DNA from: Escherichia coli
Lineage (GTDB): Bacteria > Pseudomonadota > Gammaproteobacteria > Enterobacterales > Enterobacteriaceae
Reading direction: 5' to 3' (one strand)
Assembly (NCBI RefSeq): GCF_011045215.1
Contig: NZ_CP049201.1
DNA: 64,000 bases
Shown here: piece after piece, positions 2,709 to 30,320 of the stretch
Numbering within the stretch: position 1 is the stretch's first letter
How the letters are laid out: each line of letters begins with the position of its first letter
Program-made: the position numbers and the translations under genes
Notes under the pieces: model-generated
The model's database searches: none
Seen by the model: the letters and a program-made list of their open reading frames with translations, nothing else
Told to the model about the DNA's origin: nothing

Positions 2709-2716
2709 GAATCTTC

Positions 2717-7035: not shown

Positions 7036-7059
7036 CGCAGTCCTTTTTGAGGTCAGTCT

Positions 7060-11530: not shown

Positions 11531-12105
11531 CAAACGATGATTACATCCGTCTGTTGTCGGCACTGTTGCCCCCCGGTCCGGCGTGGTCAGCCAGCGATCC
11601 GGCGATTGCCGGTGCGGCACCGTCATTAACCCGTGTTCATCAGCGTGCGGATGCCCTGATGCGGGAGCTGGATCCGCGCACAACCACCGAACTGATAAAC
11701 CGCTGGGAGCGTCTGTGCGGCCTGCCGGATGAATGTATTCCGGCAGGGACGCAGACCCTTCGCCAGCGTCAGCAACGGCTGGATGCGAAGGTTAATCTGG
11801 CGGGCGGCATCAATGAGGATTTTTACCTTGCACAGCTTGCTGCCCTGGGCAGACCAGACGCCACCATCACGCGATACGACAAAAGCACGTTCACCTGCTC
11901 ATCTGCCTGTACTGACGCGGTGAATGCGCCGGAATGGCGGTATTACTGGCAGGTCAACATGCCAGCCGCCACCAACACCACCTGGATGACATGTGGCGAT
12001 CCCTGTGATTCCGCACTGCGTATCTGGGGCGACACCGTAGTCGAGTGTGTGCTTAACAAACTCTGCCCGTCGCATACCTACGTAATTTTTAAATATCCGG
12101 AGTAA
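11521..12105 (+). CDS. YmfQ-like tail protein (DUF2313, Mu gp48-like)
   Basis: 194 aa with a Cys-rich C-terminus; position directly upstream of the tail fibre gene, as in e14. Confidence 0.75.
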
Positions 12106-12108
12106 TCC

Positions 12109-12642: not shown

Positions 12643-12791
12643 GTGCTGGGCGGGGATTCGTGATGACCGCAGAAGGCCCAACATTAACCTGTTTTTAATT
12701 CCGCTTACAGAACTGCATCAACCAGTTCCACAGTATCGATGAATTACAGTTGGTGGGCTGTTGGTGAGTAATTTTATTCAGGGTGATTTAT

Positions 12792-13235
12792 ATGAACGAA
12801 TATGTTTATAGCGCAAGGAATAATGCTTTTTCCCTGTGGATATGATTGATAAATATAAATCAGAGGGATGGGATTTATCAGATGCAAAGGAGGTGAATCA
12901 AAATATTATCAGTGAGTTTATGGCTGAACCGCCACAAGGAAAAATCCGTATTGCCGGAGATGATGGGATGCCTGCGTGGGCAGATATTCCTCCACCCACG
13001 CATGAAGAGCTTATTGAAATTACTGAATCAGAAAGACAGCTACTAATTAACCGGGCCAACGAATACATGAACAGTAAATCTGTGGCCCGGTAAAGCCGCT
13101 ATTGGTCGTCTGAAAGATGATGAACTGGCGCAATATAATTTGTGGCTGGATTATCTGGACGCACTGGAGCTGATCGATACTTCCGGTGCGCCAGATATTG
13201 AATGGCCTACGCCTCCGGCAGTTCAGGCCAGATGA
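12792..13235 (+). pseudogene. tail fibre assembly protein (Tfa) disrupted by two frameshifts
   Basis: N-terminus MNEYVYSARNNAFSLWI* (12792-12845), middle segment in ORF 12836-13093, C-terminus ...AAIGRLKDDELAQYNLWLDYLDALELIDTSGAPDIEWPTPPA in a third frame ending at 13233-13235. Confidence 0.55.
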
Positions 13236-13809
13236 CATCCGGCGCGGTGCTGGTATCTGTTGCCGTCACCGCGTCAATGTAATCCAGCACAGCGTTAAGG
13301 CGGGTTGTTTCTGCCTGCGTCAGATTCCGTCCGGCCTGTAATTTCAGTTGAATCAGACTGATGGAGGCCATTGCAGTATGAATCAGCGACTGGCGCAGTG
13401 CTTCTGCTGCATCTACTGCTGCGCCGTGCTGTGCCTCGGTATCTGTCACCCATTTCTCACCATTCCATTTATCGTATGGCGTTAACGGGGCGATAGTGGT
13501 TGTATTTTCAGGATAATCACCCGGAGCTGTGATTTTTTCGATTCTCCTGTTTCGGTGCTATAGACGATTTCACCACGATGATCTGGCACATATTCCCATG
13601 AATTTAAATCTACAGAGCGACAGATTGCATAACCAGCTTTATGTGTAATAAGCATCCAAACAAGAACATGCCGGGATACCGACGCCGACAGCGAGATATT
13701 CAGTTGATGTAGAAATATATTCACGCGTTTCACCATCATAATTATAAATGATAATGTCTCCCGCTTTTATGGCAATGAGTTCACTATTTAATACAGCTTT
13801 ATTCATCAT
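13207..13809 (-). pseudogene. second tail fibre assembly protein (Tfa') disrupted by two frameshifts
   Basis: Starts ATG at 13809 overlapping the fibre stop (ATGA); frame switches near 13640-13660 and inside the T6/A6 tract at 13533-13538; C-terminus ...RLNAVLDYIDAVTATDTSTAPDVIWPELPEA. Confidence 0.55.
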
Positions 13810-14313
13810 GCAGCCCTCACAATATAATTAAAGGCGATGTTACGTGGACGATTTTCATTTGCTGTTGGAACAACATTTGCCGCCGAGAAGTGAACATCTT
13901 GTCGGATTTTTCGGTCATTAGCGTATGTCATAGACACATTGATGTTATTCCGGACTGAGGTACCTCCGTAAAAGCCCCACTCACACTTTGAACATCGACA
14001 ATTGCATTAATTTCGCTGTTTACGCGCAACTGACCAAAACCGCCAGTAATGTTTCGAATAGCATCTCCTTGCGATGAAAGCAGAGTTCGCCCACTATCCA
14101 CACCACGTTCATCATCCCATCCACGAATAAATTCACCGCGTAAATCAGGCAATTTATTTGTCGGGTAAGCCTTTGCCAGTTCCGGGTATTCTTCAGCAGA
14201 AAAAGCCGCACCATTGCATTTCAGCCAGCCTGTTGGCGGAGTGGCTGAAGGCCACGGAACAGGCACCCCAACCCCACATGCTGAGCCTTCTCCCAAACCA
14301 ACGTTTATGAAAA
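13806..14313 (-). pseudogene. alternative tail-fibre variable C-terminal segment (promoterless; joins the constant part after inversion), frameshifted
   Basis: Begins in frame at the right crossover site (...FINVGLGE...); main frame stops at 13928-13930, while the conserved fibre terminus ...EWGFYGGTSVRNNINVSMTYANDRKIRQDVHFSAANVVPTANENRPRNIAFNYIVRAA lies in another frame ending at 13806-13808. Confidence 0.55.
14288..14313. repeat. right crossover site of the Pin-type invertible segment
   Basis: TTCTCCCAAACCAACGTTTATGAAAA; inverted relative to 12386-12411; 55 bp upstream of the invertase start. Confidence 0.7.
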
Positions 14314-14367
14314 TGCAGAAATAACGAGCAAATGGCATCATTCCTGCTTTTGTCAGGGAGATCTACC

Positions 14368-15850
<1,483 letters not shown>

Positions 15851-17321: not shown

Positions 17322-17790
17322 TTCTTGCCCCCTTATTTCCAGACAGGGGGTGTATCTTAAGTTAACGTTACCCGCTGACGTCGATATTCTCGCGGAGAGC
17401 GATAACCCAACGCACTGTGCGGATGGTTTTCATTGTAATGTTCGATCGCCACTGCAAGATTATGCAATGCCGTTCTTACATTCGGTTTCGGCATGAACGC
17501 GATGTAGTCTTCCTTCATCGTTTTCACGAACCTTTCTGCAATTCCATTACTCTGAGGACTGCTGATTGCCGTTGTGCAGGGCTCCAGATTCAACTCTCTG
17601 GCGAACTGCCGTGTTTCATGCGCTCTATACGCTGAACCGTTATCTGTCAGCCACTGGATGGACTGTTCCGGTACTTTATCGCCAAAGCGTTTTTCTATCG
17701 CTCCTAACATGACATCCTGCACTGTCGCTTTATCGTAACCTCCCGTGCTTGCGGCCCAGTCTATGGCTTCACGATCGCAACAGTCCAGGG
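17322..17790 (-). mobile_element. IS2 remnant (terminal inverted repeat plus 3' part of the transposase gene; truncated)
   Basis: TTGCCCCCTTATTTCCAGACA end sequence at about 17326-17350; ORF 17357-17722 encodes an IS3-family integrase-core C-terminus (...[17 protein letters not shown]...); only about 0.45 kb of a 1.3-kb element is present. Right boundary is approximate. Confidence 0.55.
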
Positions 17791-18069: not shown

Positions 18070-18115
18070 ATTCGTAATGCGAAGGTCGTAGGTTCGACTC
18101 CTATTATCGGCACCA
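18070..18115 (+). tRNA. partial tRNA-Thr (thrW) 3' fragment (pseudo-tRNA / att core)
   Basis: ATTCGTAATGCGAAGGTCGTAGGTTCGACTCCTATTATCGGCACCA equals the 3' 46 nt of thrW as recalled; the 5' half is replaced by unrelated sequence. Confidence 0.7.
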
Positions 18116-18280
18116 TTTCAACGTCTTTTCCCGTCTATTAAAATCCAAAAAACCCGCATATACTCTAGCTTTGAGCGCCCCCGATAGTGTTTTAACGTCT
18201 ATCAATATCTCCTAAAATCCACGTCTTTTGGGGGTATATTCGGGGGTATATGCTGTGTGGGCTACTGGAGATACCCCCAA

Positions 18281-19471
18281 ATGAAACTAAATGCCCGTCA
18301 GGTCGATACGGCCAAACCGAAAGAAAAACCCTATAAACTGGCCGATGGTGGTGGGCTTTATCTGCTTGTTAATCCCAATGGTTCCCGGTACTGGCGTTTA
18401 AAGTACCGGGTAGCCGGAAAAGAAAAGCTGTTGGCGCTGGGGGTATATCCCGATGTAACCCTGGCTGATGCCAGGGCGAAACGAGATGAGGCCAAAAGGG
18501 GTATGGCTGGGGGGATCGACCCGAACGAAGCGAAGCGGGAAGAAAAATTGAACCGCGAAGCGCAAATCAAAAACACCTTCGAAGAAATCGCCAGAGAGTG
18601 GCATACAGAACGGCAGAAGAAATGGTCTGAGGGGTACGCCTCGGACATTCTGGAAGCATTCAGTAAAGACATATTCCCTTGGATTGGAAAACGCCCCATC
18701 ACGGAAATAAAGCCCCTTGATTTGCTGAATACGCTTAAACGCATCGAGAATAGGGGAGCGACTGAAAAGGCCCGTAAGGTTCGCCAGTGGTGCGGGGAGG
18801 TCTGGAAGTATGCGATCGTTACCGCCCGCGCAGAATATAACCCCGCCCCTGATCTATCTGTGGCTATGGAAGGACACGAAGGGGAGCACTTCCCCCATCT
18901 GGAAGCCGAAGAGTTACCCGAATTTTTCCAGACGCTGGCGACGGCAAAAAGTAACGTTCAGGTTATTTTGGGGCTGCGTCTGCTTATTCTTGTGGGGTTA
19001 CGTCCGGTTGAATTACGCGCGGCCCCGTGGTCAGAGATTGATTTTGATAATGCCTTGTGGGAGATCCCCAAAGAGCGAATGAAGAAAAGACGTCCGCACG
19101 TTGTCCCGCTTTCTCGCCAGGCTATGGTTATTCTCGGGCAATTAAAAGAGTTGTCGGGCCGCAATCCTTTCATTTTTCCGGGCCGGAACGACCCGCGAAA
19201 GCCAATGAGTGAAGGAGCAATTAATCAGCTAATAAAGCGACTCGGGTATAAGGGCAAAGCTTGCGGGCATGGTTTCCGACATACCATGAGCACAATTTTG
19301 TATGAGAAAGGGTATAACACCGAATGGATCGAAACCCAGCTTGCACATGTTGATAAAAATACCATCCGTGGCACATATAATCATGCCCGCTATCTGGATG
19401 GACGCCGGGAAATGCTTCAATGGTATGCCGACTATATGGAATCGCTGGCGAGTGGCAGGGTAAAAGATTAG
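18281..19471 (+). CDS. P4-type tyrosine integrase
   Basis: MKLNARQVDTAKPKEKPYKLADGGGLYLLVNPNGSRYWRLKYR... is the canonical P4/CP4 integrase N-terminus; C-terminal HxxR...Y catalytic region present; lies 165 bp after the thrW fragment. Confidence 0.9.
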   Translation: MKLNARQVDTAKPKEKPYKLADGGGLYLLVNPNGSRYWRLKYRVAGKEKLLALGVYPDVTLADARAKRDEAKRGMAGGIDPNEAKREEKLNREAQIKNTFEEIAREWHTERQKKWSEGYASDILEAFSKDIFPWIGKRPITEIKPLDLLNTLKRIENRGATEKARKVRQWCGEVWKYAIVTARAEYNPAPDLSVAMEGHEGEHFPHLEAEELPEFFQTLATAKSNVQVILGLRLLILVGLRPVELRAAPWSEIDFDNALWEIPKERMKKRRPHVVPLSRQAMVILGQLKELSGRNPFIFPGRNDPRKPMSEGAINQLIKRLGYKGKACGHGFRHTMSTILYEKGYNTEWIETQLAHVDKNTIRGTYNHARYLDGRREMLQWYADYMESLASGRVKD

Positions 19472-19511
19472 AGAAGGTCTAAGACGGGAATACCGCTAAA
19501 TTAGATGTTAG

Positions 19512-19547
19512 GCGTGGACACTCAGCATCCACGCTTAAACTTTTTAT
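19512..19547 (+). terminator. rho-independent terminator of the integrase gene
   Basis: GCGTGGA-(9 nt)-TCCACGC hairpin followed by a T-rich tract (TTAAACTTTTTATT). Confidence 0.6.
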
Positions 19548-20041
19548 TATCATTTTCAATGAATTATGATTTTGGAAATTTTATAAAAAACACCAAGATT
19601 ACTAATCTATTGATTAATATGAAATATTTCTTTTTTTGATTATTAATTGTGCTCTTGATTGTTGTTTTTATGGTGTTAATTTATAAAAATCTTATTTATA
19701 GGAATTAACATTATATAGTTGGCACTTTTTGCTAAAATCTGTTTTTATTGTGTTTTATTTTTATTTCATTTTTGTTGTTGTTTGTTTGATTTTTAGTGTC
19801 TTTATATCTGGCTAATTGATTTCACTCAAACCATAAATCCTTTCAGAGGCTTCTAGAGTCTTCCTGAGGCTTAAATTGACTTAACTAAAAGTCAAGCCCC
19901 ACATCCCACATACATCTTTTTGACATGCACTTATGGCGTGAATAACAATGACTTCATCCAATCTACAGGCATCCTATAAAGTCAATGTCTGTATATAGAA
20001 AGATATTACATAACGTTTGAATGTTAATAGCGGGTGTGAAT

Positions 20042-20260
20042 ATGAGAAATGATGCAATGCAGCTTTTAAACCAGGGAAAAAGATTGATCCGCCTGCCTGA
20101 AGTTATGATGCTTACGGGGCGGTGTCGCGCCAGTATTTATAAAGATATCAATGCAAATGTCTTTCCAAAGCCGATTAAAACCGGCCCGCGTTCTGTCGCA
20201 TGGGTTGAGGGTGAGATCAGCGACTGGATCGACAACAAAATCAAAGAGCGCAAAGTGTAA
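20042..20260 (+). CDS. alpA: AlpA-family phage regulatory protein (excisionase-like)
   Basis: ...RLIRLPEVMMLTGRCRASIYKDINANVFPKPIKTGPRSVAWVEGEISDWI... matches the AlpA pattern; start is ambiguous (20042 or 20057). Confidence 0.75.
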   Translation: MRNDAMQLLNQGKRLIRLPEVMMLTGRCRASIYKDINANVFPKPIKTGPRSVAWVEGEISDWIDNKIKERKV

Positions 20261-20459
20261 ATCTGATTTTATTCAGAGATGAATATGATTTATTTGAATG
20301 CTAAGGATTTTGTGTATTCTTTTTGTTGTAAATACTCGTAGCATGGGGAGTTGGCAGTATTTATTCAGTATTAGGTTAAGTAGTGATAAAATACCAGGTA
20401 ATGCCGGTTTATGCAGTGTTTAATATATTTGTTGCTGGCGAAAATTTACGGAAAATTAA

Positions 20460-21332
20460 ATGAACATTACTGATATTATCAGCCATCGCGTATATCGTGA
20501 TGCGGATCTTGCTGTCATTAATAACACGGCATTTATTCAGCCTTATGACGGTTGTCACCGTGGGTTGTATGAAATGCGCGTTATTGAACTTTATCGCCTG
20601 AATAAAATGATGCACCTTACCCACGAATATAAATCTATTTCCGGGGAAAGCGTAGGCATTCCGGCGACTAAAGAGGAACTGTTTACACTGGTTAATAAAG
20701 GGCATGAACTTTGCCAGTCTGAACGGGAAAAGCTGGCGGCACTTGAAGCAGAATTGCAGCGTCTGCCAAGCCCGGCTGTAATTCCTGCGCCGCAGACGAT
20801 TAAAGAAGCACAGCAGGCCCGTAAATCACTAGAAGATGAAAGATACAGACTGCATCACGCAGCAATTAAAAATCAAGTCAAAGCACAGCAGGAAGAGTTA
20901 TCCATCAGACAAAACATTCTGGAATTGCTCGCGCCGGTTATTGATGTGTTGTTGGCCGTGGAAGATGTGGAACTGCTCGATCTGCGCCGTTCCCTGCCTA
21001 AGTCATCCCTCGATGCTAAGGCATTCAAAAAGGCGATTTCTGAAATTGAGTGTGCTGACCTTGCCTGGCAGAAAATGGATAAACTGGAGATTGCCCTTAA
21101 CAAGGTGGTGAACAACTGCACATATCGCCCGGAAGGAAGCATTAATCCCCGTTTTGTTAACCCTCTTAATGAAGATAAGCGGGAACGCGCCGAAATATCA
21201 CGCGATTATTACAGCTCTGAAATGGCCTTTATTCATACGGTGATGAGTGCAGATGAATATTTAAATTATATGTTGCCGATCCGTCACCAGCAGCGCGCGC
21301 AACGACTCACATTAGAAAGAAATATCAACTAA
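20460..21332 (+). CDS. hypothetical coiled-coil protein (possible capsid scaffold / size-determination factor)
   Basis: 290 aa with a long Gln/Glu/Leu-rich heptad-like central region; immediately upstream of, and on the same strand as, the capsid-like gene. Confidence 0.45.
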   Translation: MNITDIISHRVYRDADLAVINNTAFIQPYDGCHRGLYEMRVIELYRLNKMMHLTHEYKSISGESVGIPATKEELFTLVNKGHELCQSEREKLAALEAELQRLPSPAVIPAPQTIKEAQQARKSLEDERYRLHHAAIKNQVKAQQEELSIRQNILELLAPVIDVLLAVEDVELLDLRRSLPKSSLDAKAFKKAISEIECADLAWQKMDKLEIALNKVVNNCTYRPEGSINPRFVNPLNEDKRERAEISRDYYSSEMAFIHTVMSADEYLNYMLPIRHQQRAQRLTLERNIN

Positions 21333-21341
21333 GGAAGAATT

Positions 21342-22349
21342 ATGTCTTATGTAACACCAGATTATTTAACGCAGTATCACGAAAACCTGATTAAGTCTTT
21401 TAATATTAAATATAAAAACGAAGATACGGGGTATTTCACCATATCACAGCCGGAAAAAGCATCTCCGGATGCATGGGGATGTTCCACGCTTGATGTTAAA
21501 GGCTCGTCCTGGCTGATTGATAATATTTCATTACTGGACATTATCGGTGCGGATGGCACGACGATCACCATCGGTGATGGTTCCCTTTATACAGGCCGTG
21601 CAAAGGAAGGTCGCTTTCATAAGAAACTAAAAACCAACGGAACACCTTTTTTATTATCAGAAACGGATTCCTGCGCCTCATTGACTTATGAAGAAATGGC
21701 GGTAATGGCAAACGCGAAAAATTTCAGTAATGAAATGATCATTTTTTTCAAGAAGGCCGTGGTGCGGGATATGCTCCGTATTGGATTTAACGGCAAGATG
21801 ATTGCCGAAAATACCAACCCGGAACAATATAAAAACGGCGAAGATATCAATATTGGCTGGCACTCGCTGGCAAAAACATTCAATAACGGTTCACAAATTA
21901 TTTCTGATGCTTTCGCACTGGGGAAAGGCGGTGATTTTGCCGATGTTCACGATCTGGCTGATTGCCTCATCACGTCAAAAATCCCCGAAGGTCAGCGCGA
22001 AGATCCGGGCCTTGTGGTGATGGTTGGCGCGCAACTTGCCGCCCGCGAACGACTGAAACTGTTCAACATGGCCGATCAACCACTGACGCTGACGGCGGGG
22101 GATATGCTGACAAGCAGTGTCGCCGGTCGCTTTGCTTTTATCCCGCCGTTTATGCCGGGTAAGCGCCTGGCTGTTACGACGCTGAAAAATTTGCAGATCC
22201 TGACGCTGAAACACAGCCAACGCTACCGCGCGGAGGATATCCCGCAACGAGGTGTTTATGAGCATGGCTATTTACGTGAGGAAGGTTACGCGCTGGGGGA
22301 TGGCTATCTTTACGCGGCCAGCGATGAGAACGCCGTAACGCTGGTTTAA
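21342..22349 (+). CDS. P2 GpN-family major capsid protein homologue
   Basis: Segment LGKGGDFADVHDLADCLITSKIPEGQREDPGLVVMVGAQLAA parallels P2 gpN VGKGGDYASLDALVMDATNNLIEPWYQEDPDLVVIVGRQLLA (recalled from memory); FNGKM... also parallels gpN FNGVK... Confidence 0.6.
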   Translation: MSYVTPDYLTQYHENLIKSFNIKYKNEDTGYFTISQPEKASPDAWGCSTLDVKGSSWLIDNISLLDIIGADGTTITIGDGSLYTGRAKEGRFHKKLKTNGTPFLLSETDSCASLTYEEMAVMANAKNFSNEMIIFFKKAVVRDMLRIGFNGKMIAENTNPEQYKNGEDINIGWHSLAKTFNNGSQIISDAFALGKGGDFADVHDLADCLITSKIPEGQREDPGLVVMVGAQLAARERLKLFNMADQPLTLTAGDMLTSSVAGRFAFIPPFMPGKRLAVTTLKNLQILTLKHSQRYRAEDIPQRGVYEHGYLREEGYALGDGYLYAASDENAVTLV

Positions 22350-22561
22350 GTATCGAGTACAGCCAGCTTTGACAGTGATGGCCAGATAAAAGAAAACCCT
22401 CTCACCGGAACGAACAAGAAACGATAAGAGGGTTTATCAGGAAGATGATTCTACGTGATGAATTATACCGAGAAACAACCGATGCTTACCAGCAAAAACG
22501 CGTCACTGTTTGTGCAGCTGGCACCGTCCGATCTGACGGTGTTTTCCGGAATGGTAAGGAG

Positions 22562-22753
22562 CTATTCCTTTGCCTTTTTGCGCTGTTCTGCTTTCAGCTT
22601 GCGCCCGCAGGCATCCAGCACCCAAGCGGAAAAACTTGAACCCGGATTATCGACTTTTTCGCGTTCTACGCAGGCATCAATTTCTGCGATCATTTCATGC
22701 GGGAAGCGTATTCCCTTGTATGTTGTTTTGCTGTTTATGTGGTTTTTAGTCAT
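22562..22753 (-). CDS. putative small DNA-binding regulator (ribbon-helix-helix-like), about 63 aa
   Basis: MTKNHINSKTTYKGIRFPHEMIAEIDACVEREKV... has RHH-like strand-helix character; divergent from the downstream operon with operators between; start codon uncertain (M15/M24/M33 of the track ORF). Confidence 0.45.
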   Translation of the reverse strand: MTKNHINSKTTYKGIRFPHEMIAEIDACVEREKVDNPGSSFSAWVLDACGRKLKAEQRKKAKE

Positions 22754-22769
22754 GCTGGAAACTCTTAAG

Positions 22770-22870
22770 TGTTTAAACATCAGTAAAGATACAGTAAAGC
22801 CGGACATAACAAAACTGTTTAAACAAAATCTGTTGACTTGTTTAAACACTCAGCATAATGTGTTTAAACA
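22770..22870. promoter_or_regulatory. operator array: four copies of the palindrome TGTTTAAACA within divergent promoters
   Basis: Exact copies at 22770-22779, 22816-22825, 22839-22848 and 22861-22870; TTGACT (22833-22838) and CATAAT (22854-22859) hexamers interleave with the right-hand pair. Confidence 0.6.
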
Positions 22871-22960
22871 GTTTGCTACGTTGCAAACTGAAAAAACGAA
22901 GCCCGGCAGTGTTGACGCACTAACCGGGCCTCTGACCAACACGTTATTAGGAGTAACGCT

Positions 22961-23164
22961 ATGGCTAGCCATCAGTGTAACCAAACTCGCCCTAAAAATC
23001 GCCTATTTCTCTTTCTCGCGGTATCACGGGCCGACATGCAGGACAAACCACACCGCGAACAAATCACCGCGTACAGCGAACAGGAAGCCCGTTCCATGCT
23101 GGCCGGTCGCTTTATCCTCTGCTTTGCTGGCCGTCTGCCGGTTCAGGAGGTGCACCATGTTTAA
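22961..23164 (+). CDS. hypothetical protein (67 aa), first gene of the coupled operon
   Basis: AGGAG 7-8 nt upstream of the ATG; stop overlaps the next start (ATGTTTAA). Confidence 0.4.
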   Translation: MASHQCNQTRPKNRLFLFLAVSRADMQDKPHREQITAYSEQEARSMLAGRFILCFAGRLPVQEVHHV

Positions 23165-23405
23165 CCCACTGGACAACCGCAAAGCGGCGGCGCTTAACCC
23201 GTTCCACGATGACTGTTACGATCCGCCAGCCTTTATTAAACCGGGTTCAAAAGTAGTGGTTGAAATTGATTCCCGGGAAATGGAGGTCGCTATTCTAGCC
23301 GCTTATGACTACGGACTGGACGCGCTGAACGACGATGGCCGGGAAGAGCTTAACCGCTTAATTGCTGACCTGAAAGACAAGATAACGGAGGCGCGGTATG
23401 CATAA
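23158..23405 (+). CDS. hypothetical protein (82 aa)
   Basis: Strong SD (caGGAGGtg) before the ATG at 23158; acidic protein; the rest of track ORF 22455-23405 is rejected. Confidence 0.55.
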
Positions 23406-23823
23406 TCTGCTTAATTCACCGTTGCCAGTGTCTATGGATCTCTTTCAGGCTGGCGAGATGTGCGGGCATTTTGTCGCGCGGTTAACGGATGAAAGTTGTG
23501 TTGACGAGACTGAACGCGTCGCACTTTGCGGACGTCTGGCTTTTGCCCTGCGTTCTCTTTCATCTCTTTGTGATACAGACTATCCATCGCATATCCAGGC
23601 GCAATTAACCGCGACTGCTATTCCTGCTCCCTGCGTACCTGATGAGTGGATCGACGCGACGATCATGACGGGCTATTGCACCGCCTTAAATGATGCGCTG
23701 CTTAGTCGCTCCCTTCGTATGGACGTTGAAACACAATTACGCTGGCTTTTGCATGACATGATTAATTTACTTGTCAGATATCTGAAACAGCCTTGTATTA
23801 AGGCGGGAGTAGATCATGTCTGA
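23398..23823 (+). CDS. hypothetical protein (141 aa)
   Basis: Start overlaps the previous stop by 8 nt; Cys-containing; no known motif. Confidence 0.55.
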   Translation: MHNLLNSPLPVSMDLFQAGEMCGHFVARLTDESCVDETERVALCGRLAFALRSLSSLCDTDYPSHIQAQLTATAIPAPCVPDEWIDATIMTGYCTALNDALLSRSLRMDVETQLRWLLHDMINLLVRYLKQPCIKAGVDHV

Positions 23824-24214
23824 AATTATGCTCACACCGTTTCACGTTGACCGCCATTTTTACGATCTGGTTTACGGTGCTTCATTTTTTGCGGATGCAT
23901 TACCTGCAATGAATGATATCAAGCAGCAGCGGCTTTATTGTCGATTATTGCAATTAAATCTGGTTGTTTTATTTGAAAAACGGTCGCGGGATATTCCCCC
24001 AATTCAGTCGAGTAAAATAAAAATCGCTGATGAGGTTATATTTCTTAATGTCGATAATATTTATCATGCGCTTTCCCTGACTGCCGGGCTGATAAGTCAG
24101 GATATCAGTAAGGGGATGGAAAAAGAACTGGCTGAATATATCAGGGATATTATTAGTATTATTTTTAATGAAATGCGAATGCAGATGGTTGATTATGATC
24201 CATATGAAATGTGA
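23816..24214 (+). CDS. hypothetical protein (132 aa), AT-rich gene
   Basis: Start overlaps the previous stop by 8 nt; composition shifts to AT-rich. Confidence 0.5.
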   Translation: MSEIMLTPFHVDRHFYDLVYGASFFADALPAMNDIKQQRLYCRLLQLNLVVLFEKRSRDIPPIQSSKIKIADEVIFLNVDNIYHALSLTAGLISQDISKGMEKELAEYIRDIISIIFNEMRMQMVDYDPYEM

Positions 24215-24310
24215 GACGAATAAAACAATAATCGATTTATAAGAACTGAAAAATATTTAATTATAACCGTATTTTAACGGGGGATAATTACGCCCCTGTA
24301 AGGAAAATAT

Positions 24311-24580
24311 ATGTCTGATTTGAATACCATTGCTGTTAATAGTGCTGAAAAATATCTTAGCCTTGAGTGCTTCCATAAACTCAACCGCGCAAGGAATGTT
24401 TCATTCCAGATGCATTTACAGATCCGTCAGTGTGAGATAAACGGCCTGCCACTTTTATGGATTCCAGATATTTTCAGCTATATCAGCGAAGACATATCCG
24501 CCGTTCTGGAAGAAGCCAAAGTACTTGGCCTTTGCGATAAGTTCACAGGCGAAGCCCGGATCGGTCAGGTCAGTCTTTAA
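24311..24580 (+). CDS. hypothetical protein (89 aa)
   Basis: Same strand, between the coupled operon and the primase gene. Confidence 0.45.
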   Translation: MSDLNTIAVNSAEKYLSLECFHKLNRARNVSFQMHLQIRQCEINGLPLLWIPDIFSYISEDISAVLEEAKVLGLCDKFTGEARIGQVSL

Positions 24581-24643
24581 TTTTTTGTATTCCGCGCCGC
24601 CCGCTGCGGCGCATTGTCTTACCCATTAATAAAGGTCATACCG

Positions 24644-27376
24644 ATGCAAGGTAAAAAAGTTTCACAGACAGCAGGACGCGCGGCGGGCCAGTGGGAAAAT
24701 ATTCTTGAACACCTGGGGATTACTGTTCCTGCGGGTGGTCTTCATGGCCCCTGCCCGATCTGCGGCGGTAAAGATCGTTTTCGCTTTGATAATAAAAAAG
24801 GGCGTGGAACCTGGTTCTGCAACCAGTGCGGCCACGGTGACGGGCTGGATCTGGTCAAACTGGCGCTTTCGCTGGACACCGGGCCAGCCGCTGATCGAGT
24901 TGCTGAATTACTTCCGGCCCTTCCTCCGCCTGCGGTCATGCAGCCTGCCAGAAAAGAAGCCAGTGACGAAGGTCGCCCACATGACTACTGGCAACGCCTC
25001 TTTGCCCGTACTCAGCCGGGGGAAAGCCCTTACCTTACGGCGCGGGGGCTGACAGGTTTTGAACTGCCGCTGACCGTTCAGGAGATGAAAACCGCTGGCG
25101 GTGTTTTTCCGGCTGGTTCGCTTTTATTACCGATCACGGACACCGAAGGACGGATGACCGGTGCACAGCTTATCGGCCCGGACAAGGTAAAAGGCTTATG
25201 TGCTGGCACCAGGAAAAAAGGGCGTTTTATCTCTGTCGGGCCGTTCCCGGAGAAAATGCCCGCGCGGATCATTATCTCGGAAGGCTTTGCCACTGCGTTA
25301 AGCGCATCCCTGCTTTCAGAGGGCTGGAGTATTGCGGCGCTGGATAAAGGCAACCTGAAAGACGTTGCGGAGCAAATCCGCCAGAAATGGCCGGACGTGC
25401 AGATCGTTATTGCCGGTGATAATGACTTTTCTGACGGTAAACCCAATCAGGGGAAAGAGTCTGCGATCAAAGCTGCACTGGCCGTTAAGGGATGGATGAC
25501 CATTCCTCCCGGACGGATCAAAGTTGACTGGGATGATTACCGCCGTGAATTTGGCCTCCAGCGCGCCCGTGACGCATTCGCGGAAGAACTGCTTAACCCG
25601 GCAGACACCGAAACGCGTTTACCGCATGGTTTCCGCCTGACGAAGGATTATCTTTGGTTTGATCGCCCGCTCAGTGACGGTAGCGAAAGCGGCCAGACTC
25701 GCCAGGTGAAGATATGTAGCCCGCTCAAAGTGACGGCCATCACCAGCGACGGCGAAGGCGGTAAATTCGGGCGTCTGCTTGAGTGGGAAGACTCCAGCGG
25801 ATTACGGCATGAATGGGCGATGCCAATGACAGTGCTTGCCGGAAGCGGTCAGGAGCTGCGGGAGGTTCTGCTTGATAACGGAATGCACTTTATCAGCGTG
25901 AACGGCGCGGCGCGTAGCTATCTGATGGAATACATTTCTAACTGTCGCCCGGTTCGCCGCGTCACCTGCGTTGAAAAAACAGGCTGGTTTAGCGGTGCGT
26001 ATGTTCTCCAGGATGAGGTGATCGGCAGCGATGCCGGATCGGTCATCCTCCAGTCTGCTATGTCGTCTAAAAATGACTTCCGGGTGAGCGGAACGGTGGC
26101 GGAATGGGCGCAACACGTCGGGCGCTATTGTGCCGGAAATTCCCGCCTGGTGTTCTGCGTCAGTCTGGCGCTGGCCGCGCCGTTACTGAATATTATTGGT
26201 GTTGGCGGCGGCGGTTATCACCTTAAGGGCGAATCCACGGACGGCAAGACAACCACAATGAAGGTAGCGGCGTCTGTCTGCGGCGGGCCTGATTTCTGGA
26301 AAACGTGGCGGGCAACCGGAAACGCGCTGGAAGGTATTGCGCTACGCCGTAATGATGCCGCCCTGATGCTGGATGAAATCAGCGAAGTTGACGGCAGAGA
26401 GGCTAGCCGGATCGCCTATATGCTGGGGAACGGGCAGGGCAAAGCAAGGGGGCGCGTTGATGGCAGCGTCCGCGATCCGGTGACCTGGACATTGCTTTAC
26501 CTGTCCACCGGGGAAATCTCTATTGCGGAACATGCCGCCGAAGCCGGAGAAAAGCGAACCGGCGCGGGTGTCGGTGTGCGTATGGTGCAAATCCCCAGCG
26601 ATACCGGAAAACATGGCGCTTTCGAAAATCTCCACGGCATGGAAGGCGGTAAAGCGTTTGCGGAATACCTTGAACAGACCTGTAAACAATATTACGGCGC
26701 GCCGTTCCGCGAATGGTTGCGCTGGCTGGCGGCAAATCTGACGGAAACCGCGAACCGGGCGCGGGCAATGAAAAAAGAGTATGAACGGACATTATTACCC
26801 GAAGATTCCGGCAAGCAGGTTGGGCGCATTGTGGATCGCTTTGCACTGTTGGCCGTTGCGGGGGAACTGGCGAGTGAAGCGGGGATCACAGGCTGGCAAC
26901 CAGGAGAAGCGTATAACGCTGCAAGAAGCTGTCTGGCGGCATGGCTTAACGATCGTGGACATGCGGCCAACCAGGAAGAAGCCGACGCGCTGGAGAAGGT
27001 GCGGCGCTTTATTACGGCCAATCAGTACACACGCTTTGCTGACTGGTATGACGAGAAAAACCGCCCGTCAAATATGGTTGGCTTTCGCCGGGTGGAGAAA
27101 GGCGGGAACGGTATTGGCATGAGCAAAAAGGAGAACAGCGGCGATACTGTTAAAGACGGGGACGCCACTAAAGAGCCGGAAACCACATTTTATATCCTGC
27201 CCAGCGGATGGAAGGAAATTTGCGGGACGTCGGACAGCGTTAAAACGGCGAGACTATGCGACGAGGCTGGATGGCTTGTAAAGGATGAAGATCGCCAGCG
27301 CCTACAACGTACAGTAAGACTACCGGAAATTGGCTTAAAGAAAGTGTATGTGTTCAGCGGCGAAGTGATCGGATAA
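24644..27376 (+). CDS. P4 alpha-type DNA primase/helicase (zinc-binding, Toprim and P-loop helicase domains)
   Basis: CPICGGKDRFRF...WFCNQCGHGDG zinc motif; Toprim-like IISEGFATALSA...IAGDNDF; Walker-type region further downstream; true start ATG 24644 (the track ORF begins at a TTG). Confidence 0.9.
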   Translation: MQGKKVSQTAGRAAGQWENILEHLGITVPAGGLHGPCPICGGKDRFRFDNKKGRGTWFCNQCGHGDGLDLVKLALSLDTGPAADRVAELLPALPPPAVMQPARKEASDEGRPHDYWQRLFARTQPGESPYLTARGLTGFELPLTVQEMKTAGGVFPAGSLLLPITDTEGRMTGAQLIGPDKVKGLCAGTRKKGRFISVGPFPEKMPARIIISEGFATALSASLLSEGWSIAALDKGNLKDVAEQIRQKWPDVQIVIAGDNDFSDGKPNQGKESAIKAALAVKGWMTIPPGRIKVDWDDYRREFGLQRARDAFAEELLNPADTETRLPHGFRLTKDYLWFDRPLSDGSESGQTRQVKICSPLKVTAITSDGEGGKFGRLLEWEDSSGLRHEWAMPMTVLAGSGQELREVLLDNGMHFISVNGAARSYLMEYISNCRPVRRVTCVEKTGWFSGAYVLQDEVIGSDAGSVILQSAMSSKNDFRVSGTVAEWAQHVGRYCAGNSRLVFCVSLALAAPLLNIIGVGGGGYHLKGESTDGKTTTMKVAASVCGGPDFWKTWRATGNALEGIALRRNDAALMLDEISEVDGREASRIAYMLGNGQGKARGRVDGSVRDPVTWTLLYLSTGEISIAEHAAEAGEKRTGAGVGVRMVQIPSDTGKHGAFENLHGMEGGKAFAEYLEQTCKQYYGAPFREWLRWLAANLTETANRARAMKKEYERTLLPEDSGKQVGRIVDRFALLAVAGELASEAGITGWQPGEAYNAARSCLAAWLNDRGHAANQEEADALEKVRRFITANQYTRFADWYDEKNRPSNMVGFRRVEKGGNGIGMSKKENSGDTVKDGDATKEPETTFYILPSGWKEICGTSDSVKTARLCDEAGWLVKDEDRQRLQRTVRLPEIGLKKVYVFSGEVIG

Positions 27377-27419
27377 GACCTGCTGACACCGCTATAACTA
27401 ACGGTGTTGGCCAGCTTCC

Positions 27420-27700
27420 GGCCCTGGAAACATAGCCAGCCAGGAAGAAGTGATCGCACGTATCATATTTTTTAGTGGAAACAGTGGGAACATAGGGAAC
27501 AGACTTGATTTATAAAGGTTTTATTTGTTCCCAATTACTGTTCCCATATGGTAACAGGTGGTAATGTATTTTAAATCATATGGTTATGTTGATATGCAAA
27601 GCGTTGTTCCCAGTTGTAAAAGAGAGATGGGAACAGGAAAAAGGTATAAATATCAACACTGTTACCATTGTTCCCACTGTTTCCACCATTTTTGACAATA
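27420..27700. repeat. iteron cluster (GGGAACA / TGTTCCC heptamers), putative replication origin or cis replication region
   Basis: At least 7 exact copies in both orientations plus variants (GGAAACA, TGTTACC, TGTTTCC) within about 280 bp directly after the primase gene; resembles P4 ori/crr TGTTCACC iterons. Confidence 0.55.
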
Positions 27701-27724
27701 ACAATATTTAATTTCGGGGAAAAT

Positions 27725-27741
27725 GCTTTTCCCTGGCTGGC
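27725..27741. repeat. 17-bp direct repeat, left copy (GCTTTTCCCTGGCTGGC)
   Basis: Exact copy of 30005-30021; lies 20 bp upstream of the P2-like integrase start. Confidence 0.5.
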
Positions 27742-27760
27742 TAACATCAAAGGTAAAGAA

Positions 27761-28726
27761 ATGAGCATTAAGAAACGTCCTGATGGAAAATGGCTGGTAG
27801 ATATGCGGCCCGCAGGTCGTAAAGGAAAACGTATTCGCAGGGTTTTTAACAGGAAATCGGAGGCCCTGGCATTTGAGATGTATTACCTGGTCCGTTCTCA
27901 ATCGCCGGAATGGGCAACGAACTTCACAGACCGCAGATTATTAAGCGATTTGCGTAAAACATGGTGGGACCTGTTTGGACACGCCAGAAATAACGCAGAA
28001 ACTGAAAAGCGCCAGCTTGATAAAACCATCCGGCAGATGGGAGATCCACCAGTTAACCGGCTTACAATCCGCTTCATTCTGGAATTCAGAGCAGGCCGTG
28101 TTTCAGGGAAATTAAAGGCATCCACGATAAATCGCGATATGTACCGGTTATCAGGCATGTTTACCGAATTAATTAAAGCAGGTGAGTGTAAAAATAATCC
28201 GTTCCGTAGTCTTGAACCGTTAAAGGAAGAACCTTCCGCAGTAACGTTTCTGACCCACGAAGAAATTAGCATGTTACTGGAAAAACTGGAGGGAGATTCG
28301 CGTAAGCTGGCGTTACTGTGTCTTAATACTGGGGCGCGTTTCAGTGAAGCCGCGAATCTAACGGCTGAAATGGTTAACAACCGTCGTGTAACGTTTATTA
28401 AGACAAAGAACGGGAAGCAGCGGACAATACCCATTTCATCTGAACTCGAAAAGGAAATAAAAACAAAAAATTCAGGTCAACTTTTCACGGTGGATTATAA
28501 ATGGTTTTCCCGCAGGTTGAAGGCAATCAAACCGGATTTACCGGATGGACAGGCAACGCATGTATTACGACATACTTTCGCCAGTCATTTCATTATGAAT
28601 GGGGGAAATATTGTTGTATTAAAAGAGATTCTTGGACATGCCAATATTCAGCAAACTATGATTTATGCACACTTTGCGCCTGAATTTCTGGCGCAGGCTG
28701 TAACATTGAATCCATTTAGTAAGTAA
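27761..28726 (+). CDS. P2-like tyrosine integrase
   Basis: MSIKKRPDGKWLVDMRPAGRKGKRIRRVFNRKSEALAFE... parallels P2 Int MAIKKLDDGRYEVDIRPTGRNGKRIRRKFDKKSEAVAFE (from memory); C-terminal HxLRHTFASHF...Y region present. Confidence 0.85.
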   Translation: MSIKKRPDGKWLVDMRPAGRKGKRIRRVFNRKSEALAFEMYYLVRSQSPEWATNFTDRRLLSDLRKTWWDLFGHARNNAETEKRQLDKTIRQMGDPPVNRLTIRFILEFRAGRVSGKLKASTINRDMYRLSGMFTELIKAGECKNNPFRSLEPLKEEPSAVTFLTHEEISMLLEKLEGDSRKLALLCLNTGARFSEAANLTAEMVNNRRVTFIKTKNGKQRTIPISSELEKEIKTKNSGQLFTVDYKWFSRRLKAIKPDLPDGQATHVLRHTFASHFIMNGGNIVVLKEILGHANIQQTMIYAHFAPEFLAQAVTLNPFSK

Positions 28727-28754
28727 CTGCGGATTTTCTTTTGAATGTACAAAA

Positions 28755-29012
28755 CTAACGTTGAAGTAATTCTTTCATGACCGTTTTTTGTTCCGGCGTC
28801 ATCATGTCAATCATTGTTTTTACTGCTTTATCCCCAGTCAGAGCGCTGGGGCTTAGCGTATGGGAGAACGTCATATTCATAACGAAGGTATGCCCACATT
28901 CAACATTATTACAGGCACAATACATATCAGACAGGTGGGGATGCTTGCGCACTGTCTTTTTTGTTGTTGAATTACTTCCACACTCAGGACAAACAATTTT
29001 ATGGCTGCGCAT
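28755..29012 (-). CDS. Ogr/Delta-family zinc-finger transcriptional activator
   Basis: CPECGSNSTTKKTVRKHPHLSDMYCACNNVECGHTF: a CxxC...CxxxxC zinc finger typical of P2 Ogr / P4 Delta; convergent with the integrase, 28 bp apart. Confidence 0.8.
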   Translation of the reverse strand: MRSHKIVCPECGSNSTTKKTVRKHPHLSDMYCACNNVECGHTFVMNMTFSHTLSPSALTGDKAVKTMIDMMTPEQKTVMKELLQR

Positions 29013-29430
29013 AATAATCACCACTCGTAAAAGGCGCATTATTATACCACTATTTGCATTAAACAAAAAAAAGAAATTGATATAAATTATCAATAATATC
29101 ATCGTGTTATGTCATTCCATTCTTTCTTTGCTTTTAACTTAGTGTCACGCAATTTGATTTTTTTTGTTTTAATTTTCATATGGTTACGTTATTTTGATTA
29201 AAGATTGAATTTTACGATGACTGTAATTATTGAAATCCTTTTCAACTGATTGCATTTTTTTCAGTCTCAAATTTCATGTAAAACCCCGTTTAACGCCTGT
29301 TCTGGCGCTTCTTTCCTGCAATTTTCCAAACTGAAAAAATTCTCACTACGTAAACACCGTGGGCGTGCGGGTGAGCGCGGTTTTGGTCCCGCTGGCGTTT
29401 GCGTCGTAACAAGTCAGAAACATACAACCA

Positions 29431-29452
29431 CATGTACAACTAGCTGTACATA
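29431..29452. promoter_or_regulatory. putative YefM-type operator (paired TGTACA hexamers)
   Basis: caTGTACAactagcTGTACAta lies 45 bp upstream of the antitoxin start. Confidence 0.45.
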
Positions 29453-29495
29453 TGCAATACTTACGACGTAATAACTTGGCGGACGGAAAAACACT

Positions 29496-29741
29496 ATGCA
29501 ACACGTAAACTATACCGATGCTCGACAGCATTTAGCTGACCTGATGCAGCAGGCTAATGATGATCGTGCGCCAATCCTGGTTACGCGTAAGGGTGCTAAA
29601 AGCGTAGTAATGATCGATGCGGAAGAGTTCGCATCGATTCAGGAAACGTTACACCTGTTCAGTAACCCGGCGAACGCCGCACACATTGAAGCCAGCCTTG
29701 CATCGCTCGAACGCGGCGATTATGAGGAACTGGACATTTAA
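29496..29741 (+). CDS. type II antitoxin, Phd/YefM family
   Basis: 81 aa; ...RAPILVTRKGAKSVVMIDAEEFASIQETLHLFSNPANAAHI... matches the YefM pattern; 1-nt overlap with the toxin gene. Confidence 0.85.
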   Translation: MQHVNYTDARQHLADLMQQANDDRAPILVTRKGAKSVVMIDAEEFASIQETLHLFSNPANAAHIEASLASLERGDYEELDI

Positions 29742-30001
29742 TGAAAGTCAGGATATCCCCGCAGGCAAAAGGCGATCTTCAGTACTGGGCTGAGAATGAC
29801 CCAAAGACGTATAACAAGGTAATGGAGCTAATCAAATCGGCTAAGGAAAGCCCCTTCAAGGGGATAGGGAAGCCGGAGGCGCTAAAGCATCGTAAGCCGC
29901 TTTGGTCACGTCGAATCACGAAAGAACATCGCCTGGTGTATTACGTTGAGCAAGGCGATCTGTACATTGTTGCGTGTCGCTATCACTACACCACGATTTA
30001 A
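29741..30001 (+). CDS. type II toxin, YoeB/Txe family mRNA interferase
   Basis: 86 aa; ...GIGKPEALKHRKPLWSRRITKEHRLVYYVEQGDLYIVACRYHY is the conserved YoeB C-terminus. Confidence 0.85.
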   Translation: MKVRISPQAKGDLQYWAENDPKTYNKVMELIKSAKESPFKGIGKPEALKHRKPLWSRRITKEHRLVYYVEQGDLYIVACRYHYTTI

Positions 30002-30004
30002 ACA

Positions 30005-30021
30005 GCTTTTCCCTGGCTGGC
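30005..30021. repeat. 17-bp direct repeat, right copy (GCTTTTCCCTGGCTGGC)
   Basis: Exact copy of 27725-27741; begins 4 bp after the yoeB-like stop. Confidence 0.5.
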
Positions 30022-30320
30022 GGGTTTACCTTAACTTTGCCAGCACTGTTTAAACGCCCGCCGCTCTCTCCCAAATACAGTATAAAAAGCAATCAATTAT
30101 TGTGGACGTAAAAGCGCATGGGGGTACAATTGGGGGTACGTTGGTTATCCATTATGTAATAAATTCATAATAAACATGGTGTTATATTGCATGTTTAACT
30201 CTTATTATCTACCCCATATTCAAATACACCACGTTTCCTCCTGTGCCGTATTTATGCCATTGTAACCCTGGCAATTAATCAAAATACTGTTCTGACATCA
30301 GGCAATGCAGGTGCAGACAT

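Follow-up and report, generated by a model that had tools for sequence, protein, structure and literature searches.

A P2-family major capsid protein encoded by a lineage of P4-related satellites in Enterobacterales

Introduction

P4 is the textbook example of a satellite without a structural gene, shrinking the capsid of its helper from the outside with Sid. It has been described as having no structural genes for capsid and tail (PMC9122126). Here we analyse a 64,000-nucleotide stretch of the Escherichia coli contig NZ_CP049201.1 (hereafter the window), in which a P4-related satellite of ~12.1 kb (18118-30223) surrounds a gene at 21342-22349 for a major capsid protein (MCP) of the P2 family, homologous to P2 gpN.

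Capsid-protein homologues are known from satellites of other types. In SaPIbov5, the homologue Ccm takes the pentamer positions of a procapsid with triangulation number T=4, the shell size to which it thereby redirects assembly (PMC8569155). A lone capsid gene is common in the phage-inducible chromosomal islands (PICIs) of Gram-negative bacteria, where it was found in 21 of 29 reference elements (PMC10111431; PMC6092414), and the capsid-forming PICIs (cf-PICIs) go further, encoding a portal, a head-tail connector and adaptor, and a large terminase, and stealing only tails (PMC10085698).

Part of what we describe is therefore already known: lone capsid homologues in satellites are established (Ccm, Gram-negative PICIs, PmCI172), and the Prokaryotic Genome Annotation Pipeline (PGAP) already labels the gene studied here 'P2 family phage major capsid protein' in the three E. 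coli genomes that carry this satellite. Surveys of P4-like satellites make no mention of capsid genes in these elements (PMC8628076, PMC10085698), and such genes likewise go unmentioned in a 2026 preprint on P2/P4 hotspots. In the full-text literature that we searched, we came across no account of the present lineage, nor of any P4-like satellite with a P2-family capsid gene, an absence that is no proof in itself. The satellite lineage is thus apparently undescribed.

Results

The window encodes a divergent P2-family capsid protein

The central feature of the satellite is a single open reading frame (ORF):

21342-22349, plus strand: divergent P2-family (gpN-like) MCP, 335 residues, matching PF05125 and phrog_70, with a predicted HK97 fold

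The first-pass annotation of the window, made from the letters alone, had proposed a GpN-like MCP at this position from motifs in common with P2, and had suggested a profile search, a pairwise alignment and a fold prediction as checks. All three bear the proposal out. In a Pfam profile search, PF05125 (Phage_cap_P2) matched residues 10-327 of the protein over model positions 3-324 of 327 (E = 1.2e-54), a full-length match to the P2 family, and phrog_70 ('major head protein') of the PHROGs collection matched with an E value of 3.7e-72. Aligned by BLASTP with P2 gpN (from AF063097), the window MCP is 24% identical (E = 6e-18), which makes it a homologue and no close copy of GpN. This alignment reproduces those motifs, pairing 'LGKGGDFADV...REDPGLVVMVGAQLAA' of the window with 'VGKGGDYASL...QEDPDLVVIVGRQLLA' of P2, and the two proteins have (L/V)GKGGD and EDP(G/D)LVV(M/I)VG in common. 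A profile of the MCP family matched the P2 gpN chain 7jw1_A with an E value of 2.5e-97. The NCBIfam model TIGR01551 scored 157.3 bits (E = 5e-46), under its curated equivalog cut-off of 219.65 bits; by the NCBI threshold, the window MCP is a divergent homologue rather than an equivalog of phage gpN.

From an alignment of 32 sequences, AlphaFold2 produced a model with a predicted local distance difference test score (pLDDT) of 81 and a predicted template modelling score (pTM) of 0.81, and its predicted fold is HK97-like. The top matches of this model in the PDB, found with Foldseek, were the phiRSA1 capsid protein (7oz4) and P2 gpN in the P4 procapsid (7jw1), with E values of ~1e-20 and TM scores of 0.6-0.75. 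Lower-ranked matches were further HK97-fold capsid proteins, including those of the cf-PICI EcCI2, SaPI1 and SaPIbov5. Since both the similarity to the GpN family and the predicted HK97-like fold are real, the observation of a capsid gene stands.

Relatives of the window MCP number in the hundreds, are ~330 residues long and 45-57% identical to it, and are spread across Enterobacterales. The closest phage proteins are the MCPs of ESSI-2-like Peduoviridae (Cronobacter phage ESSI-2 and its relatives), at 38-49% identity, the nearest of them at 41-49%; when HP1-like Peduoviridae are included, the range is 34-49%.

The capsid gene is an old, selected resident of a satellite lineage

To place the gene in context, we scanned one genome per species with the capsid alignment and scored marker proteins in the best 80 of 118 confirmed loci. 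About 20 of these 80 loci are satellites, with the MCP, a second protein that we call orf290, the alpha primase and Ogr, and without head, packaging or tail genes; L080 and L083 are short, partial satellite copies. The satellites come from at least 15 genera: Escherichia, Salmonella, Citrobacter, Pectobacterium, Pantoea, Proteus, Morganella, Buttiauxella, Intestinirhabdus, Atlantibacter, Franconibacter, Siccibacter, Kosakonia, Phytobacter and Ca. Erwinia. A further 58 loci are ESSI-2-like or HP1-like Peduoviridae which, apart from a few truncated or incomplete ones, have portal, terminase, gpO, gpM, gpL and sheath genes as far as the locus reaches. An E. coli MCP copy at 46% identity to the window MCP likewise resides in a complete P2-like phage.

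All ~20 satellites have the order alpA, orf290, MCP, alpha, ogr, with an N-terminal fragment of gpO after the MCP gene in some, and no homologue of the portal or the large terminase was found in any of them. Islands of Pectobacterium and Salmonella, for example, carry AlpA, a 285-290-residue protein, the MCP, the alpha primase, Ogr, defence cargo and an integrase. The window satellite alone has an inverted ogr and an extra integrase. The lineage lacks P4's capsid-hijack genes, sid-delta-psu, and has the orf290-MCP pair after alpA in their stead.

In a neighbour-joining tree of 84 MCP sequences, the satellite proteins were monophyletic in 100 of 100 bootstraps, with no phage copy inside the clade; its sister is a small group of phages from E. 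coli, E. albertii and Edwardsiella. The ratio of nonsynonymous to synonymous substitution rates (dN/dS, Nei-Gojobori) between pairs of satellites was 0.05-0.14 for the MCP gene and 0.08-0.22 for orf290. Monophyly, synteny, intact frames and low dN/dS together argue for long-term selection for a function inside the satellites, and the capsid gene is accordingly an old, selected resident of them rather than a recent capture or a decaying remnant.

These data bear on whether the MCP gene could be a dispensable passenger, a captured late gene of the helper that has no required part in the satellite life cycle. This has been reported for the capsid gene c1499 of the Gram-negative PICI EcCICFT073, the deletion of which did not relieve interference with lambda (PMC6092414), and it would agree with the finding that no late promoter is recognised upstream of the window gene. 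However, repeated recent capture would not be expected to give a clade that is recovered in every bootstrap, strict orf290-MCP synteny in all ~20 satellites, or intact reading frames at a dN/dS of 0.05-0.14, and we consider a passenger improbable.

The satellite MCPs also differ from those of the phages at positions that could matter for assembly. Their N-arm (residues 1-30) has no consensus in common with that of helper MCPs. Seven of the 14 clade-signature residues lie at residues 194-241 of the window MCP, which align with P2 gpN 202-249; the signature positions at gpN 202, 213 and 215 are inside the sir loop (gpN 183-224), and the other four are just past it. The sir loop sits at the A-domain apex and governs size redirection, and mutations there block redirection by Sid (PMC7552001). 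The N-arm and the signature residues may be hints that the satellite MCP uses a different scaffold.

The satellite has most P4 hallmarks and no other head genes

The host is E. coli, its paoC being 99.5% identical, and the locus adjoins yagP and the pao genes; we take it to be the thrW/CP4-6 region. The satellite is present in 3 of 5,426 complete E. coli genomes. Besides the MCP gene, it has the following features:

18070-18117, plus strand: 3' 48 nucleotides of a tRNA-Thr gene (thrW-type), an attL remnant, 100% identical to annotated E. coli tRNA-Thr genes
18257-19471, plus strand: P4-type tyrosine integrase, 404 residues, 44% identical to P4 Int; PGAP 'tyrosine-type recombinase/integrase'
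20021-20260, plus strand: AlpA/Vis-type regulator or excisionase; phrog_2790 and phrog_66, 39% identical to P4 ORF88
20460-21332, plus strand: orf290, all-alpha partner of the MCP gene, with its stop codon 9 nucleotides before the MCP start
22562-22849, minus strand: YlcI/YnfO-family small protein; NF041551 (E = 6e-13) and phrog_949; on the strand opposite to most of the element
22961-23164, plus strand: Icd-like host cell-division inhibitor, 67 residues; its orthologue from E. coli JNEC-KY203 bears the annotation 'host cell division inhibitor Icd-like protein'
24311-24580, plus strand: epsilon (derepression) protein, 45% identical to P4 epsilon; PGAP 'derepression protein'; phrog_10016
24614-27376, plus strand: alpha-type primase/helicase (zinc ribbon, Toprim, DUF927), 36% identical to P4 alpha over 325 residues; PGAP 'DUF927 domain-containing protein'
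27425-27685, no strand assigned: putative replication origin, ~11 iterons TGGGAACA/TGTTCCCA in two opposed sets around an AT-rich stretch, just 3' of alpha
27668-28726, plus strand: second tyrosine integrase, int2; phrog_1 (E = 2e-72), 39% identical to the integrase of the ESSI-2-like phage contig L007
28755-29012, minus strand: Ogr/Delta zinc-finger late-gene activator, 85 residues; phrog_603 (E = 7e-32); PGAP 'Ogr/Delta-like zinc finger protein'
29205-29416 (core 29328-29388), plus strand: cos-type packaging element; nhmmer match to the satellite cos model (E = 1.4e-10), with the variant core GGGCGTGCGGGTGAGCGCGG
29496-30001, plus strand: Phd/YefM-YoeB toxin-antitoxin pair, accessory cargo, by PGAP annotation of identical proteins
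30193-30223, plus strand: putative degenerate attR, agreeing with the tRNA-Thr 3' end at 24 of 30 positions

The P4 hallmarks that the first-pass annotation had pointed to (Int, AlpA, alpha, Ogr/Delta and iterons) were all found in the element, the iterons by a repeat search and direct reading of the sequence, and epsilon is present as well. Orthologues of the alpha primase carry PF08273, PF13362 and PF06048. The claim of a P4 integrase at a tRNA holds for the integrase, which is of the P4 type, but the tRNA consists of just the 3' 48-nucleotide fragment: no complete tRNA was found in the window by ARAGORN (0) or Rfam, which rules out a full tRNA gene beside the integrase. At the other end, the attR alignment scored 32 against a mean of 22 for shuffled sequences (standard deviation 3, maximum 32), a weak support on which the length of the element rests.

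As had also been noted at first pass, portal and terminase genes are missing: no homologue of the portal, terminase, gpO, gpM, gpL or sheath was found at 8001-34000, which contains the whole element. BLASTP found no homologue of Sid or Psu in the window or in any related satellite, and PADLOC gave no match to a known defence system. SatelliteFinder defines seven P4-like components, Int, AlpA, epsilon, alpha, Delta, Sid and Psu (PMC10085698). The element has five of the seven (Int, AlpA, epsilon, alpha and a Delta/Ogr-type protein), with Sid and Psu missing, and is at best a 'Type C' P4-like element. It also has the layout of a Gram-negative PICI, with int, alpA, a primase, an iteron origin 3' of the primase, and mostly one-way transcription over 12.1 kb, the exceptions in gene direction being ylcI and ogr.

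Some features set the window copy apart. The second integrase, int2, is not found at this position in the other satellites and was probably captured from a helper-type phage; ogr is inverted relative to all other satellites, and int2 and the inverted ogr (27668-29012) together resemble a module taken from a helper-type phage. Three small ORFs, the second and third being orf141 and orf132, lie between the icd-like gene and epsilon, and a ~400-bp non-coding stretch separates ogr from phd-yoeB. We also noted several repeats. Four copies of TGTTTAAACA, in part as inverted repeats, lie at 22767-22870 in the divergent region between ylcI (minus strand) and the icd-like gene, and may be an operator array. 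The palindrome TGTACA-N6-TGTACA at 29433-29450 precedes the Phd/YefM-YoeB pair, which sits between cos and attR. Paired TGGGGGTA(N4)GGGGGTA motifs at 18229-18248 and 30119-30138, near both ends of the element, could be arm-type binding sites of the integrase.

The composite nature of this island, with its adjacent tail-module prophage, insertion sequence (IS) fragments, second integrase and inverted ogr, might suggest that the capsid gene is a remnant of a degraded P2-like prophage that lies by chance beside P4-like genes, and that there is no functional satellite at all. We regard this as very improbable indeed. At least 15 genera have satellites of this compact architecture without other head or tail genes, no phage copy falls in the MCP clade, the core ORFs are all intact with the cos element and the origin kept, and the prophage alongside differs in its tail module, which is Mu-like, and lacks P2-type markers.

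The partner protein orf290 and protease-only gpO fragments

The gene ahead of the MCP gene, orf290, had no match in Pfam, PHROGs, NCBIfam or PADLOC. A HMMER scan of 1.84 billion representative proteins recovered 55 relatives, mostly of 276-308 residues, plus some short fragments. Copies from different satellites are only 14-26% identical to each other, yet clearly homologous, and the predicted structure of the window protein is a confident all-alpha bundle (pLDDT 88.5). On the strength of its fixed place ahead of the MCP gene and its conservation, and of these only, we propose that orf290 is a scaffold or size determinant.

In the satellites of Pectobacterium, Morganella, Proteus and Pantoea, the capsid gene is directly followed by an N-terminal fragment of gpO, ~170 residues long (125 in Pantoea):

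L005, 3563-4072: gpO fragment gene, with equivalents in L010, L016, L017, L020 and L059

The window satellite has no such fragment. The fragment keeps the position of Ser107 of P2 gpO together with Asp19 and His48, presumably the remainder of the gpO catalytic triad, and is without the C-terminal scaffolding domain. In P2, an S107A mutant of gpO is protease-deficient, and the scaffolding C-terminal domain comprises residues 195-284 (PMC7552001). If orf290 were to replace the scaffolding function, one would expect just such a protease-only gpO beside a helical protein and an MCP.

A shared cos-type element and Ogr point to ESSI-2-like helpers

An all-against-all blastn comparison of the satellites with the phage loci revealed a conserved non-coding block of ~200 nucleotides downstream of ogr in the satellites. 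Of the satellite loci, 17 reach beyond ogr, and an nhmmer model of this block matched every one of them with 143-196 bits; its match in the window, at 29205-29416, scored 40 bits (E = 1.4e-10). The invariant core of the element is GCAGGCGGGTGCGGTGTAG. In GenBank, the linear ESSI-2 record ends in '...CTTGCAGGCGGGTGCGGTGTAG' and begins with 'GCGGGTGCGGTGTAGTGCCG...', with a terminal redundancy of 15 nucleotides, and the model matches the right end of this record at 137 bits, running on into the left end. From this agreement we read the element as the putative cos site of ESSI-2-like phages. Its core and the P2/P4 cohesive end GGCGAGGCGGGGAAAGCAC have AGGCGGG in common, and more than 120 contigs of IMG/VR, mostly of 28-35 kb, contain the 19-nucleotide core.

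In the phages examined, the cos-type element follows the last tail gene. A cos site downstream of portal-ogr, as in P2, was considered and rejected; in the phages, this region has a terminator and a LexA-box-like site, and it is not similar to the satellites. This site, CTGTATATATATACAGTA, lies after the ogr terminator, ~200 nucleotides downstream of ogr, in 46 aligned ESSI-2-like phages (for example, L008 and L049), and suggests that an SOS-controlled gene is located there.

The variant core of the window, GGGCGTGCGGGTGAGCGCGG, occurs as an exact 20-mer in four viral contigs (L089, L090, L091 and L092). One of them, L091, is the same satellite, and L090 is a short contig of 5.8 kb; L089 and L092 are ~32.5 kb long, and the tail module of L092 (IMGVR_UViG_3300011584_000016) is ESSI-2-like. 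Over 74-89 nucleotides, identity to the window cos region is 81-88% for L089, L090 and L092. As a separate observation, spacers 97% identical to 4327-4364 and 4571-4609 of L092, a candidate helper contig, are present in annotated CRISPR arrays of ~190 complete E. coli genomes.

The window Ogr is 60% identical to that of ESSI-2 and 74% identical to that of an E. coli ESSI-2-like prophage, the MCP of which is just 38% identical to the window MCP; in general, the helper-type phages are 60-74% identical to the window in Ogr but 38-41% in the MCP. The shared cos-type element, the similarity in Ogr and the nearest MCPs all suggest that the likely helper is an ESSI-2-like phage rather than P2. Satellite and ESSI-2-like prophage reside in one genome in Buttiauxella sp. 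A111 and in Ca. Erwinia dacicola IL. In E. coli, ESSI-2-like prophages are rare (~8 of 5,426 genomes).

The size of the element relative to these phages (12.1 kb against 28.8-32.9 kb, a ratio of ~0.4) can be set beside the P4/P2 ratio of 0.35 and the value of ~0.43 expected arithmetically from the volumes of T=4 and T=7 shells.

One locus combines features of both groups. In a P2-like prophage of Citrobacter sp. R56 (NZ_CP069159.1; L072, 9977-11516), an ORF fuses the N-terminal ~287 residues of the MCP to a gpM-like C-terminus; a satellite-type cos (167 bits) follows this ORF the other way round, and the prophage lacks gpL and tail genes. This prophage may be a phage-satellite recombinant or the end-point of a deletion.

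Comparison with described systems

The window element resembles P4 in its homologous Int (44%), AlpA/ORF88 (39%), epsilon (45%), alpha (36%) and Ogr/Delta-type activator, its place at the 3' end of a tRNA gene, an iteron origin by alpha, a size of ~12 kb, a helper-type cos and a proposed dependence on a Peduoviridae helper. In contrast to P4, it has no Sid or Psu and encodes an MCP and orf290. Its genes run largely one way from alpA to alpha, whereas P4 has divergent operons, and its Ogr is a single-domain protein of 85 residues, whereas P4 Delta has 166. Furthermore, its cos and Ogr point to ESSI-2-like helpers and not to P2.

With SaPIbov5, the element shares the strategy of a cos satellite without portal or terminase, approximately one third of the size of its helper, that carries a diverged HK97-fold homologue of the helper capsid protein. 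However, the similarity to Ccm is at the level of the fold only (Foldseek match to 7rwz, E = 3e-8, 11-13% identity), with no specific sequence relationship. SaPIbov5 has a Gram-positive host and a prolate-headed helper, and the function of Ccm has been demonstrated, whereas that of the window MCP is deduced by comparison.

The Gram-negative PICIs, such as EcCICFT073 with its c1499 gene and PmCI172, have a similar layout of int, alpA, primase and iteron origin, mostly one-way, in 10-20 kb. They differ in their helpers and capsid genes, the helper of EcCICFT073 being lambda and that of PmCI172 Mu-like, and the related island 11capE having a lambda-E-family capsid gene (PMC6092414, PMC10111431). 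Epsilon and Ogr genes and P2-family capsid proteins have not been reported in these islands, and the capsid gene of EcCICFT073 was dispensable.

Like the cf-PICIs, the window element has its own HK97-fold capsid protein, and the EcCI2 capsid (9gyi) is a fold match to the window MCP with an E value of ~1e-10 to 1e-11. In contrast to the cf-PICIs, neither a portal nor a large terminase was found in the window element or the ~20 related satellites. Nothing resembling a head-tail connector or adaptor was seen among the ORFs of the element, which have other functions or are small, although no homology search was aimed at these proteins. Judged by its gene content, with no portal or terminase and nothing like the connector genes, the element is not a cf-PICI.

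The ESSI-2-like Peduoviridae (Seongnamvirus, including Cronobacter phage ESSI-2 and the Escherichia phages ESSI2_ev*) have the nearest MCPs, a similar Ogr and the shared cos-type element. Unlike the satellites, they are complete phages of 29-33 kb with portal, terminase, gpO, gpM, gpL and tails, and their MCPs fall outside the satellite clade.

DNA next to the satellite

Just upstream of the satellite, a myovirus tail module (37-14922) includes genes for a sheath (2871-4367), a tape measure (5128-7035), a hub/DNA-circulation protein (7060-8436) and a baseplate (9512-12105), in a Mu-like gene order. Its tail-fibre genes, on both strands (12109-14341), adjoin a gene for a DNA invertase (14332-14922), an arrangement suggestive of a host-range segment that can be inverted. 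We considered this neighbouring prophage (37-14341) as the helper and rejected it, given its Mu-like tail order and the lack of P2-type head and packaging markers at 8001-34000, a range that includes its baseplate and fibre end. Two minus-strand ORFs (15383-15805 and 14868-15386) match positions 1-120 and 122-244 of the phrog_5356 profile, respectively; the pair at 14868-15805 looks like one gene split by a frameshift or stop codon. A fragment of an IS3-type transposase (17357-17722, minus strand) lies just left of the tRNA remnant, and Rfam matched an IS009 RNA at 42681-42879 (plus strand) with 189 bits.

Discussion

The reading that we favour, with moderate confidence, is that the satellite MCP and orf290 build or reshape small capsids on helper parts. 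The first-pass annotation had guessed at an altered capsid subunit combined with helper-dependent packaging, and this fits all the evidence from our comparisons and is our preferred mechanism. In this mechanism, an ESSI-2-like helper would infect or be induced, and the satellite would excise via Int and AlpA. Epsilon and Ogr would derepress or exploit the helper, alpha and the iterons would replicate the satellite DNA, and the satellite would make its own MCP along with orf290. With orf290 as a chaperone or scaffold, this MCP would co-assemble with or replace the helper MCP, and the shell would assemble on the helper portal with the helper gpO protease. The shells would be small, probably T=4, with room for 12 kb and not for the 29-33-kb helper genome. 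Helper terminase would cut and package the satellite at cos, and helper head-completion proteins and tails would finish the particle. Among systems that have been worked out, the nearest precedent is Ccm of SaPIbov5 with its place in the pentamers of a T=4 shell (PMC8569155).

Several points weigh against small capsids built in this way. The deletion of c1499 in EcCICFT073 brought no relief of lambda interference (PMC6092414), and a later paper cites that study for the capsid homologue of this island not being required for transfer (PMC10111431), so a satellite capsid gene need not be essential. Profile comparisons found no detectable relation of orf290 to Sid, Psu, ESSI-2 gpO or any solved structure (hhalign probability below 1% for Sid and Psu). 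Upstream of orf290-MCP there is no TGT-N12-ACA, the P2/P4-type Ogr late promoter. Five related phages yielded an ESSI-2-type dyad, TTCGG-N13/14-CCGAA, between their terminase and gpO genes; the window does not contain this dyad, nor do most satellites. No ESSI-2-like prophage was found at megablast sensitivity in the three complete satellite-bearing E. coli genomes. Finally, the cos assignment takes its evidence from the deposited ends of one phage record, together with conservation, rather than from mapped cohesive ends.

Some of the same evidence could be explained if the satellite proteins served interference only, with the MCP and orf290 entering or capping helper procapsids as poison subunits that block the helper, and the satellite being packaged as multimers in helper-sized heads. 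Satellite MCP homologues have been tied to helper interference in the case of Ccm (PMC5052747, PMC8569155), and EcCICFT073 goes into full-sized heads despite its capsid gene (PMC6092414). The divergence from helper MCPs (38-49% identity) and the altered N-arm could equally give a defective co-assembler. However, a poison would not obviously need a whole fold kept at a dN/dS of ~0.1 over at least 15 genera, nor the protease-only gpO of some lineages. The size of ~12 kb, or ~0.4 of a helper genome, is that expected for a dedicated small capsid, and PADLOC found no match to a known defence system. We consider interference alone unlikely, though less so than a passenger gene, and continue to prefer the building or reshaping of small capsids.

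Whatever its mechanism, the lineage adds to the picture given by P4: a widespread sister lineage without Sid or Psu keeps, under selection, its own capsid-protein paralogue and a partner. The Ccm-like 'capsid homologue' strategy is thereby extended to the P2/P4 system, where high-resolution structures of gpN and Sid exist, and a natural pair of P2-family capsid proteins, one from the helper and one from the satellite, would allow tests of how sequence or a new scaffold sets the T number. The lineage is also an evolutionary link among the architectures of P4-like elements, PICIs and cf-PICIs. For annotation, two of the seven P4 markers are missing, so marker-based satellite finders may under-call such elements, and prophage predictors, misled by the capsid gene, may take them for defective P2-like prophages. 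The cos model yields predictions of the phages that should mobilise these satellites.

A more specific scenario, which we put forward as a tentative possibility, is that P2 and P4 relatives have a third, undescribed strategy of capsid piracy, represented by this lineage. Long ago, a P4-related lineage would have swapped Sid and Psu for its own shell kit, made up of a private MCP paralogue, the all-alpha scaffold orf290 and, in some genera, a protease-only gpO, with which it would build a small T=4 shell; the portal, terminase, head-completion proteins and tails would be all that it takes from ESSI-2-like phages. If this is true, the T number would be set by the MCP sequence and the scaffold with no external cage, and the strategy would be intermediate between that of P4, in which Sid reshapes helper subunits, and that of the cf-PICIs, which carry a whole head module.

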